From a virus (Duplodnaviria; Heunggongvirae; Uroviricota; Caudoviricetes), in IMG/VR virus record IMGVR_UViG_2703718792_000009: a stretch of DNA of 12,086 nt; one strand, written 5' to 3'. A program made the translations under genes and the position numbers. Of this stretch, positions 597 to 12,086 are shown piece after piece; the first letter of the stretch is position 1, and the number at the start of each line of letters is the position of its first letter. The notes under the pieces were generated by a model. The model had not been told where the DNA came from. It ran no database searches and saw only the letters and a list, made by a program, of their open reading frames with translations.

Positions 597-893
597 TCAG
601 AATTGCATATCAATTTGCTTAAAATCCTCGGTGGCAGCCGGGGATTTTTTCTTTGTGATTTCATCAAGCGCATACTTAAAAGCCCTGCTAATCGGACTGA
701 TGTCTGATGCCATTCCGAAAGCACACAAGACCGAAGCAATAAATCTCCAGTCCGTTCTGCTTATCTTCGATTCATGACAGCCAATCATCTTTGCCAGACC
801 GCGCTGAGTAAGCGCTGACAGGTTGATAAGTAAATCTGTTTCTGCGCGATCAACGTCGCGCTGTGATAGTTTGCTGTAACTTGTTTGTTCCAT
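597..893 (-). CDS. cII: cII-like transcriptional activator
   Basis: 98-aa ORF; C-terminus ITKKKSPAATEDFKQIDMQF resembles lambda cII (...ILTNKKRPAATERSEQIQMEF) and an internal SKISRTDW segment resembles the cII HTH region; lies between cro and O as in lambda. Confidence 0.8.
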   Translation of the reverse strand: MEQTSYSKLSQRDVDRAETDLLINLSALTQRGLAKMIGCHESKISRTDWRFIASVLCAFGMASDISPISRAFKYALDEITKKKSPAATEDFKQIDMQF

Positions 894-1034: not shown

Positions 1035-1250
1035 TTAAGCGGATTTGTGTTCTGGCGGGAATACGTCATCAAGACTTACTTTTGCGCCTAACTTGTTTAG
1101 ACACGCAACAAGAGCACGGCATGTTTTAAGGTCTGGGAAGCGACGACCAGATTCCCAATGTCCGATAGCTCCCTGTGTGCATCCAACTTCCTTAGCAAGT
1201 GTTGTTTGAGAGATATTCAGTGACTCTCGATATTTTCGTAGGTTGCTCAT
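1035..1250 (-). CDS. cro: Cro-like HTH repressor (71 aa)
   Basis: Start taken at the internal ATG (complement of 1248-1250), preceded by GGAGGG; [39 protein letters not shown]... is an HTH_XRE-type domain resembling the N-terminus of the adjacent cI; divergent from cI across an operator region. Confidence 0.8.
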
Positions 1251-2020: not shown

Positions 2021-2049
2021 CCACAATACAACCTTGTTGTCGCAAAAAG

Positions 2050-2097
2050 ATCGCATATGCGATTGTTTATTAGAAATAGAAATCGCCATATAGGCGA
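2050..2097. promoter_or_regulatory. Two palindromes with TCGC/GCGA half-sites in the cI to 2139-gene intergenic region (2050-2063 ATCGCATATGCGAT, perfect; 2083-2097 TCGCCATATAGGCGA)
   Basis: Read directly from the sequence; located 40-90 bp upstream of the 2139 start codon. Function unknown. Confidence 0.3.
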
Positions 2098-2138
2098 ATA
2101 GTCGATCGCGGCGCATAACCTAAGGAAATCAATAACAT

Positions 2139-3041
2139 ATGCCAAATTTACCGATGGGCGGATCGCAGGGTGAATTACCCTTAGTACCTACAGTAGAAGT
2201 TGTTGCTGATGGCATTCCTATGGGGGTGCTTAATGATGGAACCCCTTATCTAACTCTTTACGGTTTAGCCAAATTATGTGGCATAGATGAAGCACCTCTT
2301 CGAATGTTTACATCTAACTGGGAGACTGAAAAAAATAAGCCAAGAGGACAAAAAGTAGCTGCATACTTAGCTGAGAAAGGATTTAACAACGTTGACCGAC
2401 TGTATACCCGCGTCATAAATAGCTCAAACGTTGAAACACATGCTTATCCTGACTATGTTTGTATGGCTGTTCTTAGGTACTATGCCCTCGATGCCACAAA
2501 TTTTGATAGATCCGTTGCAATAGGAAACTTTGTTCGCTTAGCTGAATACACGCTCAAGCGAATGATCTATGAAAAAGCAAACTATAACCCCAACGCTGCC
2601 ATAGACGTTTCATTCGAAAACTATAGAGCTCGTATAAAGCTAAACAACCAAATACCAACAACTCATTTTGCTGTATTCAGAGAAATAGCAGATATTGCAA
2701 TGACGTTAATAGGAAATGGCTTTCCTATGGATGATACCACGTCACTAGACGGAAGCGTTGGAAATCACTGGGGAAAGTATTGGACAAAAAACAACCTTTC
2801 CGAGAGATTTGGTGATAGAGTTCAATATCAACACATTTTCCCTGAAAACTACAGGCAATCTGCAGCCAACAAGTACATAAAAGCCTGGATTTACCCTATC
2901 GAATCATTGGGGCTATTCAGGAAATGGCTTCACGATAACTATGCCATGGAAAAACTACCCAAATATCTTGGAAACAAAAAAATCAGTAACATAACTGAAC
3001 TATTGGAAGCCGTCAAAAAACCAGCATTACCAAACCAGTGA
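2139..3041 (+). CDS. Hypothetical 300-aa protein in the rexAB-equivalent slot (between cI and PL/nutL); candidate prophage-encoded anti-phage (abortive infection / exclusion) protein
   Basis: Long clean ORF; AAGGA 12 nt upstream of ATG; followed by a strong intrinsic terminator. Not RexA-like. No P-loop or obvious nuclease motif seen. Looks AT-richer than cI by eye (not computed). Confidence 0.8.
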   Translation: MPNLPMGGSQGELPLVPTVEVVADGIPMGVLNDGTPYLTLYGLAKLCGIDEAPLRMFTSNWETEKNKPRGQKVAAYLAEKGFNNVDRLYTRVINSSNVETHAYPDYVCMAVLRYYALDATNFDRSVAIGNFVRLAEYTLKRMIYEKANYNPNAAIDVSFENYRARIKLNNQIPTTHFAVFREIADIAMTLIGNGFPMDDTTSLDGSVGNHWGKYWTKNNLSERFGDRVQYQHIFPENYRQSAANKYIKAWIYPIESLGLFRKWLHDNYAMEKLPKYLGNKKISNITELLEAVKKPALPNQ

Positions 3042-3062: not shown

Positions 3063-3090
3063 AACCCGGCCTCAGCGCCGGGTTTTCTTT
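3063..3090 (+). terminator. Rho-independent terminator after the 2139-3041 gene (t_imm-like)
   Basis: aaCCCGGC-ctcagc-GCCGGGtt stem (8 bp) followed by TTTTCTTT. Confidence 0.6.
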
Positions 3091-3231
3091 GCCTCACGCC
3101 CCCACCTAAAGACACATAACCAAATGTATTTATTGAAAAATAAATAGATACAACTCACTAAACCACGCAATTCTGATCTCTCCTTACATCGCCGAGGCGA
3201 TACACCCACGCTAAAAAACAACACTATTAAA

Positions 3232-3300
3232 TACAAAGTGTTATAAAAAATCACCCTATTTTAGAACAAATCGTATTGACCCAATAAAGTACATATCGTA
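3232..3300. promoter_or_regulatory. OL-like tripartite operator: TACAAAGTGTT (3232-3242), AACAAATCGTA (3265-3275), TACATATCGTA (3290-3300)
   Basis: Same TACA-N3-TGTA family as at OR; centre spacings 33 and 25 bp, close to the 32 and 26 bp at OR; overlaps the PL -35/-10. Confidence 0.45.
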
Positions 3301-3304
3301 CTAT
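3276..3304 (+). promoter_or_regulatory. PL-like promoter: -35 TTGACC (3276-3281), 17-bp spacer, -10 TACTAT (3299-3304)
   Basis: Consensus-like -35 with canonical spacing, ~190 bp upstream of N and ~45 bp upstream of nutL boxA. Confidence 0.5.
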
Positions 3305-3350
3305 TTAACCGTCAGCAGGACGCTGGAAGCCAAACGGAACAGACTGGCAG

Positions 3351-3396
3351 GCTCTTTAAACAACGTCGAACTCTCGACTACGTGGCTGAAAAGCCA
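3351..3396 (+). promoter_or_regulatory. nutL-like site: boxA GCTCTTTAAACAA (3351-3363) and boxB hairpin TGGCT-GAAA-AGCCA (3383-3396)
   Basis: boxA resembles the CGCTCTTTAACAA-type consensus; boxB has the same GAAA loop as the nutR candidate with a compensatory stem change (GG/CC here, CG/CG there). Confidence 0.55.
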
Positions 3397-3494
3397 GATC
3401 ACCCAACCACATAAGCTATGGGATGCAATGCCGGAGCAACCGTCTCAGGAGGAGCTTCGAGATTGCATCGCCAAAGTTTATTCGGGAGGAATCC

Positions 3495-3767
3495 ATGTCC
3501 AGAAAAACAGAATTTAAAGGCACCGCAGCTTCTCGCCGTAGAGCTCGTCGCGCAAATCTGCAAAGTCAGGAGGCGATCAGCTCCGACAAGCTACACAGGC
3601 CAACCCCTTCACGAGTGGTCTTGCAATGCAAGCGCAAACCAGCAATGAGAGCAGAAGTGATAACTCTGACAACGTTGACCAGAAAATATGAAGGTTCAAC
3701 TTGTCTTCCGAACGTAGCTCTTTACGCGGCAGGCCACCGGAAATCCAAACAACTGACAGCAAGATGA
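3495..3767 (+). CDS. N: N-type transcription antiterminator, P22 gene-24-like (90 aa)
   Basis: Arginine-rich motif near the N-terminus (ASRRRARRANL) and C-terminus NVALYAAGHRKSKQLTAR, close to the P22 gp24 C-terminus as recalled; GGGAGGA RBS before ATG 3495; downstream of PL and nutL. Confidence 0.8.
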   Translation: MSRKTEFKGTAASRRRARRANLQSQEAISSDKLHRPTPSRVVLQCKRKPAMRAEVITLTTLTRKYEGSTCLPNVALYAAGHRKSKQLTAR

Positions 3768-3828: not shown

Positions 3829-4452
3829 ATGTCATCAATCCGCTTAACTACGAGAATGAAAGAGGATATCGCTCGTAACGCTTTAATTAAGTCCGGGGTT
3901 TTCACCGAACTTGAAGAAGTAACAAAGTTAAAGAACCGGCTTGCACTTGACGCCAGAGTTGTTGCGTTTGGCGGTAAAAAGAAAACTGAAGAAGTGGATC
4001 AGTTATCATCCAGATTAATGGCTATAAGTGAAGAACTTGAAAAGATGGGATGTTCATTTTACTCATACGATGTTCGTTCTACTTCAATTTATCTGACTGT
4101 ATCTGGCAGAAGGGTTGGCTGGTATTCATATGGAAAAGACGGTAACGGCGAAGATATATTGCTCCCTACTCCTAACAGAGATAAATGCATGTTTAACGCA
4201 GAACACGAAATAACAAAAAGGTTTGATGAAATCTGCGCATTGCAACAAAAACTTGAAGCCAGGAAAAAGGATATCGAATCAAATGTATGGGCTGCTTTGA
4301 ACTCAGTAACAACAGTTAAGCGACTTATTGAAGTTTGGCCTGAAAGCAAAGAATTGCTACCAAAAGAAGCAGATAAAGCAAGTACAGCACTTCCTGCTTT
4401 ACGGGTAGAAGATTTGAATAAGATGATTGGACTTCCTTCCGAGGCCGCATAG
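3829..4452 (+). CDS. Hypothetical 207-aa soluble protein in the N to cIII interval (ral/sieB-equivalent accessory slot)
   Basis: GAGAGGA RBS 6 nt before ATG 3829 (the track ORF begins at a TTG at 3769); no hydrophobic segments; no motif I recognise; stop codon sits in the loop of a terminator hairpin. Confidence 0.7.
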   Translation: MSSIRLTTRMKEDIARNALIKSGVFTELEEVTKLKNRLALDARVVAFGGKKKTEEVDQLSSRLMAISEELEKMGCSFYSYDVRSTSIYLTVSGRRVGWYSYGKDGNGEDILLPTPNRDKCMFNAEHEITKRFDEICALQQKLEARKKDIESNVWAALNSVTTVKRLIEVWPESKELLPKEADKASTALPALRVEDLNKMIGLPSEAA

Positions 4453-4467: not shown

Positions 4468-4557
4468 GGCATAAACAACAGAATAAACACAGCACTGTGT
4501 ATTCATTCCAACGAGTGAATACACGGAGCAATTTAAAGCGTAAATAAGGAGCACACC

Positions 4558-4698
4558 ATGCAATATGCCATTGCAGGGTGGCCTGTTGCTGGCTGCCCTT
4601 CCGAATCTTTACTTGAGCGAATCACACGTAAATTACGTGACGGATGGAAACGACTCATCGACGTACTTAATCAGCCAGGAGTTCCCCAAAATGGATAA
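4558..4698 (+). CDS. cIII: cIII (46 aa), lambda cIII-like
   Basis: MQYAIAGWPVAGCPSESLLERITRKLRDGWKRLIDVLNQPGVPQNG, near-identical to the recalled lambda cIII N-terminal 46 aa; AAGGAG RBS upstream. Confidence 0.85.
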   Translation: MQYAIAGWPVAGCPSESLLERITRKLRDGWKRLIDVLNQPGVPQNG

Positions 4699-5705: not shown

Positions 5706-6173
5706 ATGTCTCACTTGGACGGAATTATTAAAAGATTCGAGTCCAGCTACAAAGTTAATGAAACAACAGGTTGCTGGGAGTCTACCTATTCAAAAAACAA
5801 AGGAGGATACACAAAATTTGTAGCCTTTGGCGTAACAATGCTTTCTCATCGGGTTGCTTTTGAGCTTTATCACTCCCCCATTCCATCTGGGAAGATGGTT
5901 TGCCACAAATGCGATAACCCATGCTGCGTTAATCCTGAACATCTCTTTTTAGGTAGCGCGCAAGAAAACATGGACGACAAGATAGCAAAAGGAAGGCATC
6001 GTGGAGCCAAGAAAGGTCATGCTCATCATGGTGCAAAATTAACAGAGTGGCAGGTTATAGAAATTAGGAAAAGACTCTCTGAAAAAGAGAGTCAGTACAA
6101 GATAGCAAAAGACATGGGTGTATCTCAATCAATTATAAGCAACATAAAAACTGGCAAGAGGTGGAGCAAATGA
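5706..6173 (+). CDS. HNH endonuclease (155 aa), free-standing
   Basis: Core [27 protein letters not shown] (HNH with Cys-rich metal site); start is immediately after the annealing-protein stop and the stop overlaps the ssb start (ATGA). Confidence 0.8.
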
Positions 6174-10108: not shown

Positions 10109-10309
10109 ATGCAACACGAACTACAACCTGATTCACTGGTTGATTTGAAATTCATCATGGCCGATACTGGCTTCGGTAAGACCTTCATCTATGACCGGAT
10201 TAAGTCCGGCGACCTGCCTAAAGCCAAAGTTATCCACGGGCGAGCAAGATGGTTATATCGTGATCATTGTGAATTCAAAAATAAGCTCTTAAGCCGCGCC
10301 AATGGGTAA
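10109..10309 (+). CDS. torI: AlpA/TorI-family excisionase (recombination directionality factor), 66 aa
   Basis: MQHELQPDSLVDLKFIMADTGFGKTFIYDRIKSGDLPKAKVIHGRARWLYRDHCEFKNKLLSRANG, a winged-helix Xis/AlpA-type fold signature; matches my recollection of E. coli KplE1 TorI; last prophage gene before the att core; CGGAGA RBS. Confidence 0.75.
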   Translation: MQHELQPDSLVDLKFIMADTGFGKTFIYDRIKSGDLPKAKVIHGRARWLYRDHCEFKNKLLSRANG

Positions 10310-10838: not shown

Positions 10839-12086
10839 CTATATTGCTGAAGGTACAGGCGTTTCCATAACTATTTGCTCGCGTTTTTTACTCAGGAAGA
10901 AAATGCCAAATAGCAACATCAGGCAGACAATACCCGAAATTGCGAAGAAAACTGTCTGGTAGCCTGCGTGGTCAAAGAGTATCCCAGTCGGCGTTGAAAG
11001 CAGCACAATCCCAAGCGAACTGGCAATTTGAAAACCAATCAGAAAGATCGTCGACGACAGGCGCTTATCAAAGTTTGCCACGCTGTATTTGAAGACGGAT
11101 ATGACACAAAGTGGAACCTCAATGGCATGTAACAGCTTCACTAATGAAATAATCCAGGGGTTAACGAACAGCGCGCAGGAAAGGATACGCAACGCCATAA
11201 TCACAACACCGATAAGTAATGCATTTTTTGGCCCTACCCGATTCACAAAGAAAGGAATAATCGCCATGCACAGCGCTTCGAGTACCACCTGGAATGAGTT
11301 GAGATAACCATACAGGCGCGTTCCTACATCGTGTGATTCGAATAAACCTGCATAAAAGACAGGAAAGAGTTGTTGATCAAAAATGTTATAGAAAGACCAC
11401 GTCCCCACAATAAATATGACAAAAACCCAGAAGTTTCGATCCTTGAAAACTGCGATAAAATCCTCTTTTTTTACCCCTCCCGCATCCGCCGCTATGCACT
11501 GGTGATCCTTATCTTTAAAACGCATGTTGATCATCATAAATACAGCGCCAAATAGCGAGACCAACCAGAAGTTGATATGGGGACTGATACTAAAAAATAT
11601 ACCGGCAAAGAACGCGCCAATAGCATAGCCAAAAGATCCCCAGGCGCGCGCTGTTCCATATTCGAAATGAAAATTTCGCGCCATTTTTTCGGTGAAGCTG
11701 TCAAGCAAACCGCATCCCGCCAGATACCCCAGGCCAAAAAAGAGCGCCCCCAGAATTAGACCTACAGAAAAATTGCTTTGCAGTAACGGTTCATAAACGT
11801 AAATCATAAACGGTCCGGTCAAGACCAGAATGAAACTCATACACCAGATGAGCGGTTTCTTCAGACCGAGTTTATCCTGAACGATGCCGTAGAACATCAT
11901 AAATAGAATGCTGGTAAACTGGTTGACCGAATAAAGTGTACCTAATTCCGTCCCTGTTAATCCTAGATGTCCTTTCAGCCAAATAGCGTATAACGACCAC
12001 CACAGCGACCAGGAAATAAAAAAGAGAAATGAGTAACTGGATGCAAAACGATAGTACGCATTTCTGAATGGAATATTCAGTGCCAT
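10839..12086 (-). CDS. cscB: LacY-family oligosaccharide:H+ symporter, most likely sucrose permease CscB (415 aa, complete; start codon is the last 3 nt of the window)
   Basis: Aligns by eye along its length with LacY (DKLGLKKPLIWCMSFILVLTGPF...NFHFEYGTARAWGSFGYAIG... vs LacY [23 protein letters not shown]...NFEFGRARMFGCVGWALC...); N-terminus MALNIPFRNAYYRFASSYSFLFF matches my recollection of CscB. Confidence 0.8.
   Translation of the reverse strand: MALNIPFRNAYYRFASSYSFLFFISWSLWWSLYAIWLKGHLGLTGTELGTLYSVNQFTSILFMMFYGIVQDKLGLKKPLIWCMSFILVLTGPFMIYVYEPLLQSNFSVGLILGALFFGLGYLAGCGLLDSFTEKMARNFHFEYGTARAWGSFGYAIGAFFAGIFFSISPHINFWLVSLFGAVFMMINMRFKDKDHQCIAADAGGVKKEDFIAVFKDRNFWVFVIFIVGTWSFYNIFDQQLFPVFYAGLFESHDVGTRLYGYLNSFQVVLEALCMAIIPFFVNRVGPKNALLIGVVIMALRILSCALFVNPWIISLVKLLHAIEVPLCVISVFKYSVANFDKRLSSTIFLIGFQIASSLGIVLLSTPTGILFDHAGYQTVFFAISGIVCLMLLFGIFFLSKKREQIVMETPVPSAI

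Follow-up and report, generated by a model that had tools for sequence, protein, structure and literature searches.

What occupies the slot between the repressor gene and the early leftward promoter of this lambdoid prophage, and what might it do for a lysogen? The stretch of viral DNA analyzed here (Caudoviricetes; 12,086 nucleotides, referred to throughout as the window) carries at 2139-3041, on the plus strand, an ATG-initiated open reading frame of 300 aa, confirmed from the sequence. An earlier note had read it as an unrecognized gene and a candidate single-gene anti-phage system, and had raised membership of the BstA family as a hypothesis. By analogy with characterized members of that family, the product of the gene is very probably an abortive-infection protein of the BstA family, its gene forming part of the prophage immunity region as cargo expressed in the lysogen. 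The BstA system is already known, having been described in 2021, and is picked up by standard defense-annotation models.

The surroundings of the gene define the slot. Genes for CII (597-893, minus strand; Pfam E=1.5e-31) and a Cro-like HTH protein (1035-1250, minus strand; Pfam) lie to the left of a cI-type prophage repressor on the plus strand (1361-2020; Pfam Peptidase_S24 E=1e-27, HTH_3 E=2e-10), for which ATG 1361 and ATG 1367 are both possible true starts and whose RefSeq homologues are labeled "LexA family protein". A leader of 118 nt (2021-2138, plus strand), holding two palindromes and the Shine-Dalgarno-like AAGGAA at 2122-2127, separates cI from bstA (2139-3041, plus strand), and the cI-bstA unit ends at a Rho-independent terminator (3063-3092, plus strand; stem AACCCGGC/GCCGGGTT with a T-rich tail). 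The stem at 3063-3084 has 8 bp, six of them G-C pairs, followed by TTCTTTG, in keeping with the strong terminator described earlier, and coliphage CL707 annotates a terminator, Timm, in the equivalent relative position. Beyond it, at 3276-3306 (plus strand), a promoter scan placed a PL-like promoter (TTGACC-17-TACTAT, 3276-3304). An OL operator-like sequence overlaps this promoter: the 21 nt from 3286 to 3306 show 86% complementarity with the OR region (1275-1295). This overlap locates OL/PL downstream of the open reading frame, which therefore occupies the equivalent of the lambda rexAB slot. The first gene of the early-left operon, encoding the N antitermination protein, follows at 3495-3767 (plus strand; Pfam N_peptide E=2.2e-32). 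Both the Pfam neighbors and the PL/OL-like sequences thus bear out the position between cI and PL that had been proposed from the sequence. The complete order, with cII and cro leftward and then cI, bstA, terminator, PL and N rightward, is confirmed in the window and has the same layout in the Salmonella prophage BTP1 and in CL707. A gene downstream of a same-strand prophage repressor, with a Rho-independent terminator after it, is the layout of the BstA family, whose published synteny also places bstA downstream of cI (PMC8585504). The bstA coding sequence is AT-richer than its surroundings, as had been judged by eye, if only modestly so, at 40.1% GC compared with 44.7% for the window (8th lowest among 224 windows of 903 nt).

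Several further features of the region were recorded. Between PL and N, at 3351-3398, lies what we take to be a nutL-like site, with a boxA-like GCTCTTTAA and a boxB-like hairpin GGCTGAAAAGCC, compared by eye with the lambda consensus. The genes 3' of N encode, by Pfam, Nmad5, a Rad52-like recombinase, an HNH endonuclease, SSB and a 3'-5' exonuclease. The nucleotide-modification-associated Nmad5 protein after N is encoded at 3829-4452. A lambda cIII thermoregulator RNA element was found at 4545-4603 (Rfam 88.5 bits, E=6e-21), covering the start of a cIII-like open reading frame at 4558-4698. The HNH endonuclease gene (5706-6173), which lies between those for the Rad52-like recombinase and SSB, has no counterpart there in the related E. 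coli MEI008 prophage; it is possibly a mobile, homing-type insertion. Near the right end of the prophage a TorI-type excisionase (10109-10309) is followed by cscB, a LacY-family sucrose permease gene (10839-12086, minus strand). An identification of this right-end MFS gene as lacY was rejected in favor of cscB on the csc/dsdX context, and in MEI008 (locus L084, 13451-19428) the same junction runs on into cscK-cscA-cscR-dsdX. Neither an integrase nor a tRNA gene was found at the right end within the window, and the junction suggests that the prophage is organized like KplE1, with its integrase gene at the opposite end.

Family membership rests on full-length similarity. PHROGs assigned residues 5-299 to phrog_6287, "BstA abortive infection system, replication inhibitor" (E=2e-131), and the PADLOC BstA model matched residues 8-291 (E=4e-106). 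BLASTP aligned residues 10-300 with BTP1 BstA (97% coverage) at 40% identity, 62% positives and E=4e-81, so that both the N- and the C-terminal halves are covered, and the protein has all 32 of the 32 invariant columns in an alignment of 72 family sequences. An unnamed open reading frame in the immunity region of CL707 (CL70704) is closer still, with 86% amino-acid identity in the tblastn and BLASTP comparisons. The 98 homologues come from Enterobacterales, Pasteurellaceae, Aeromonas and Xanthomonadales; PF26567 is annotated as a precomputed domain in almost all of them, and some RefSeq entries are already named "BstA C-terminal domain-containing protein" or "BstA-like C-terminal domain-containing protein". 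The gene can therefore no longer be called unrecognized, whereas the BstA hypothesis of the earlier note is upheld by both profile searches, the BTP1 alignment and the cI synteny. Pfam-A and NCBIfam gave no match to the protein, the Pfam-A copy used evidently lacking PF26567. These two databases likewise returned no ATPase or nuclease domain, as had been anticipated, and the absence of resemblance to Rex also stands, with no RexA or RexB match in Pfam, PHROGs or PADLOC and a slot that holds a single open reading frame. The identity to the founding member, BTP1 BstA, is only 40%, which counts against this assignment.

The earlier note had also found the N-terminal part of the protein reminiscent of KilA-N/Bro-N domains, and a KilA-N/Bro-type antirepressor, or another regulatory DNA-binding protein of the phage life cycle, would be an alternative to a role in defense. 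The architecture expected of BstA proteins is one of two domains with a boundary near residue 155, a putative N-terminal DNA-binding domain and a BstA C-terminal domain, and remote homology has been used to place a KilA-N(-like) domain at residues 32-147 of BstA-BTP1 (PMC8585504). Pfam KilA-N matched 0 of the 72 aligned family members, which gave scattered sub-threshold HTH matches only. An AF2 model built from the 72-sequence alignment (mean pLDDT 87.5, with a pTM of only 0.60) describes a soluble, two-part alpha/beta protein in which residues 1-12, the tail encoded by the candidate aba region discussed below, are disordered. When this model was compared with viral models, Foldseek returned weak matches (E 7e-4 to 0.5) enriched for antirepressor, Bro-N and KilA-N proteins. 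The KilA-N-like label is therefore plausible for the N-terminal domain, with the weak viral matches in its favor and the Pfam result against it. KilA-N/APSES and Bro-N have no sequence-profile match to the window protein, and the resemblance is a lead rather than evidence of membership. Foldseek against the PDB gave nothing at E<0.4, DdrC being the closest solved structure, and a search of the PDB with the family profile found no match. A PDB sequence match to 8vz6, an "Abi family protein", was discarded as chance level (E=0.089). Of the checks that the earlier note had proposed, Pfam yielded no KilA-N and structure prediction a model of good local confidence, and it was PHROGs and PADLOC that named the protein as BstA. 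An antirepressor is very improbable on these grounds: the protein is a full-length member of a family with experimental abortive infection (PMC8585504), the domain making up its C-terminal half is specific to BstA (PF26567 in homologues) and is neither KilAC nor ANT, and repression in the lysogen would be defeated by an antirepressor transcribed together with cI.

Homologues of mosaic composition were also observed. Between residue 9 and approximately residue 108, the BstA of locus L006 matches the window protein exactly; its C-terminal part departs from that protein in the CL707 pattern. The BstA of locus L024 is approximately 85% identical up to about residue 148 and approximately 40% identical in the C-terminal part, with the same box-2 sequence as the window, GATCGCAGGG. 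These mosaics, together with the AF2 model, fit a two-domain architecture.

How the gene would act follows from the published biology of the family. The protein is produced in the lysogen; when a phage infects, it moves to the phage DNA that is being replicated, stops that replication and makes the infection abortive (Owen et al. 2021, PMC8585504). Judging by this family behavior (PMC8585504), bstA of the window would be transcribed with cI in the lysogen. A promoter scan of the 118-nt cI-bstA leader found no sigma-70-like promoter, and the lack of a promoter-like site between the two genes suggests that they may be co-transcribed from PRM. The palindrome-rich character of the leader reported previously was confirmed (ATCGCATATGCGAT at 2050-2063, a perfect 14-mer, and TCGCCATATAGGCGA at 2083-2097). 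A structured leader RNA was considered and rejected, the predicted fold being no better than that of shuffled sequences (z=-0.91). On infection by a foreign phage, BstA would gather at the replicating phage DNA and block its replication, and the infected cell would die without releasing progeny, protecting the population. When the resident prophage is induced, an aba element spanning the bstA start would neutralize the cognate BstA and allow the prophage to replicate; the candidate cis aba at approximately 2102-2171 would provide this exemption. The single-gene defense proposed in the earlier note thus holds insofar as BstA is one protein, but known BstA loci pair that protein with a cis-acting aba, of which a candidate is seen here.

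It is pertinent to ask whether the protein acts on phages at all. The BTP1 orthologue was first named st313-td in the BTP1 records and implicated in Salmonella virulence phenotypes, and Owen et al. mention earlier virulence and anti-virulence reports for it (PMC8585504), which would fit a host-interaction factor. The published abortive-infection results concern the BTP1, Klebsiella and E. coli NCTC10963 (BstA-Ec) homologues only; all three were active, and their anti-phage activity was direct and transferable between Salmonella, Klebsiella and E. coli homologues (PMC8585504). As the window protein, moreover, has no sequence sign of secretion or host targeting and its AF2 model is soluble, a virulence or anti-virulence function is extremely improbable. 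The bstA-Ec cloning primer (PMC8585504 supplement) is an exact match to the CL707 leader, which identifies the tested E. coli allele as the CL707 type, approximately 86% identical to the window protein.

The distribution of the gene bears on whether it is still functional, since a BstA-like passenger, related by descent, might have lost its function in the window prophage. Here the prophage is seen at its right end beside cscB, with no integrase in view, which would suit a decaying element. However, the open reading frame is intact and full length with every invariant residue retained, and the RBS, terminator and aba-like boxes are conserved. Furthermore, an identical protein is recorded on 816 contigs, and among 5426 complete E. 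coli genomes 33 carry this gene type, 10 of them with 100% identity at the nucleotide level. We therefore regard a decayed or inactive passenger as quite improbable, and the antirepressor, passenger and virulence explanations together as unlikely.

Accessory cargo would also be expected to change its genomic company. In E. coli 2013C-4538, the one context examined, the identical gene lies behind a different repressor in a lambda-like prophage. In MEI008 (L084, 4292-5736), a prophage with the same backbone at the same chromosomal site, the cI-N slot is empty, consisting of approximately 420 bp with no annotated open reading frame, and illustrates presence/absence polymorphism of the bstA cassette. 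The other repressor in 2013C-4538 and the empty MEI008 slot imply that the cassette moves between immunity regions as a unit, and indicate that it is mobile and maintained, as accessory cargo would be. The last ~30 nt of cI (1993-2020; CCAGTGGCCTGAAGAGACGTTTGGGTAA, encoding ...QWPEETFG*) are conserved between the otherwise different repressors of the window, CL707 and BTP1, and the 99% match to E. coli 2013C-4538 begins at this same conserved end. This segment may serve as a crossover point at which cassettes are exchanged.

A BstA locus should also contain the means by which its own prophage escapes. A carrying prophage does so through aba, which acts as DNA and against the cognate BstA only; in BTP1 it is a 63-bp element that starts 29 bp before bstA and extends 34 bp into the gene, with terminal CCCGCC direct repeats that are each essential (PMC8585504). 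At sequence level, the window has a comparable start-codon-spanning element with terminal direct repeats, a candidate aba at 2102-2171: GATCGC occurs as box 1 at 2104-2109 and as box 2 at 2161-2166, 57 bp apart and bracketing the ATG at 2139. When the cI-bstA junctions of the window, E. coli 2013C-4538, CL707 and BTP1 were aligned, each had a direct hexamer repeat in the same two columns, with a sequence that differs (GATCGC in the window, ATCCCT in CL707, CCCGCC in BTP1). The window boxes have just six exact nucleotides in common, or 7/9 when extended. A third GATCGC lies at 2049-2054, 55 bp upstream of box 1, and the near-identical leader of L006 has one too; the window contains six GATCGC sites in all, and half of them lie in 2049-2166 on the plus strand, 55 and 57 bp apart. 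A Dam GATC is present in each of these three, and more ATCGC half-sites are found within both leader palindromes. The BTP1 aba is without GATC, so any role of methylation would be specific to the window allele. Whether the GATCGC boxes are functional determinants of aba immunity we consider evenly balanced.

To place these boxes in a wider frame, 80 bstA loci from IMG/VR were all lined up at the conserved MGVLNDGT codon. Exact direct repeats of 6 nt or more, with the first copy at -120 to -112 and a spacing of 56 or 57 bp, were present in 29 of 65 non-identical leaders, compared with a mean of 0.38 loci and a maximum of 10 in control windows at other positions and spacings; the surveyed loci are related to one another, so that these counts do not represent independent events. 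No fewer than 12 distinct box sequences were represented, and most of the remaining loci have an imperfect pair at the same place. The two boxes of one locus agreed at 7.0/12 positions at a spacing of 56/57, against 3.3-4.2 at other spacings and 5.0/12 when boxes were paired across loci, the observed value being reached in 0 of 2000 re-pairings. The boxes were located by searching for the BTP1 pattern, and box 2 lies within coding sequence. A Klebsiella phage that was checked separately has TGGTCA boxes 57 bp apart, and the further types seen elsewhere comprise GATCCC, CCACCA, TGGTCA(CCA), TGGGCA, TGAACA, GAGCAGC and GCAGCACCCC, with CCCGCCA as the BTP1 type. A general third box across the family was sought and rejected: only the -57 partner stands out (4.71/8 against a mean of 1.99, with the next-best at 3.57), which makes the third GATCGC specific to the leader type of the window.

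We propose, with confidence that is evenly divided, that aba may be a bipartite site found throughout the family rather than a peculiarity of BTP1: two boxes of ~6-12 bp, separated by 56-57 bp, would flank the bstA start codon at a constant position, the two copies co-varying in sequence and the sequence itself differing from one BstA clade to the next. We found no description of such a two-box family pattern in Owen et al. 2021 (PMC8585504), the text of its supplement or later indexed papers, and no mechanistic or structural papers on BstA or aba after 2021 in the indexed literature. This architecture is the sole point of the present analysis that is possibly new. If it is correct, the boxes would amount to a specificity code from which the immunity of each prophage to a given BstA could be read, and the window allele would be a distinct immunity type, having boxes with Dam (GATC) sites and a third copy 55 bp upstream. 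Should the boxes determine specificity, BstA immunity groups would become predictable from sequence, the BstA-aba interaction would be open to box swaps between alleles that are 86% identical, and the need of aba for replicating or high-copy DNA could be probed, including through Dam methylation in the GATC boxes. The window gene itself adds no new kind of system, and the comparative view of aba is its useful residue. As a correct rediscovery, it demonstrates that a sequence-only reading of the cI-PL slot can spot real defense cargo.

Comparison with BTP1 brings out a shared plan with different details. In both BTP1 (STMMW_03531 / st313-td) and the window, bstA lies directly downstream of cI and upstream of a terminator, PL and N, and the boxes share a common register, with box 1 at about -115/-116 and box 2 at about -59 nt from the MGVLNDGT codon. 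The box is GATCGC at a spacing of 57 bp in the window, as opposed to CCCGCC(A) at 56 bp in BTP1, and the window leader is longer (118 nt), containing the third GATCGC and two palindromes that BTP1 is without. Given 40% protein identity and the cognate-pair rule (PMC8585504), the aba elements of the window and BTP1 should not cross-protect. The CL707/BstA-Ec type belongs to the same clade as the window, in the same slot and with the same Timm-type terminator. The differences between these two proteins are concentrated in residues 9-28 (10/20), a stretch encoded by the aba region, and the boxes differ likewise, being ATCCCT in CL707 and GATCGC in the window.

The resemblance to lambda RexAB is, conversely, one of place and outcome. 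By analogy, the two would share the slot from cI to OL/PL, expression with cI in the lysogen and abortive infection as the class of outcome, although RexAB has no homology to the window BstA. Rex is a two-protein system consisting of a sensor and a membrane channel. BstA, unlike Rex, consists of one soluble protein, which has a putative DNA-binding domain, acts by blocking the replication of phage DNA and is accompanied by a DNA immunity site.
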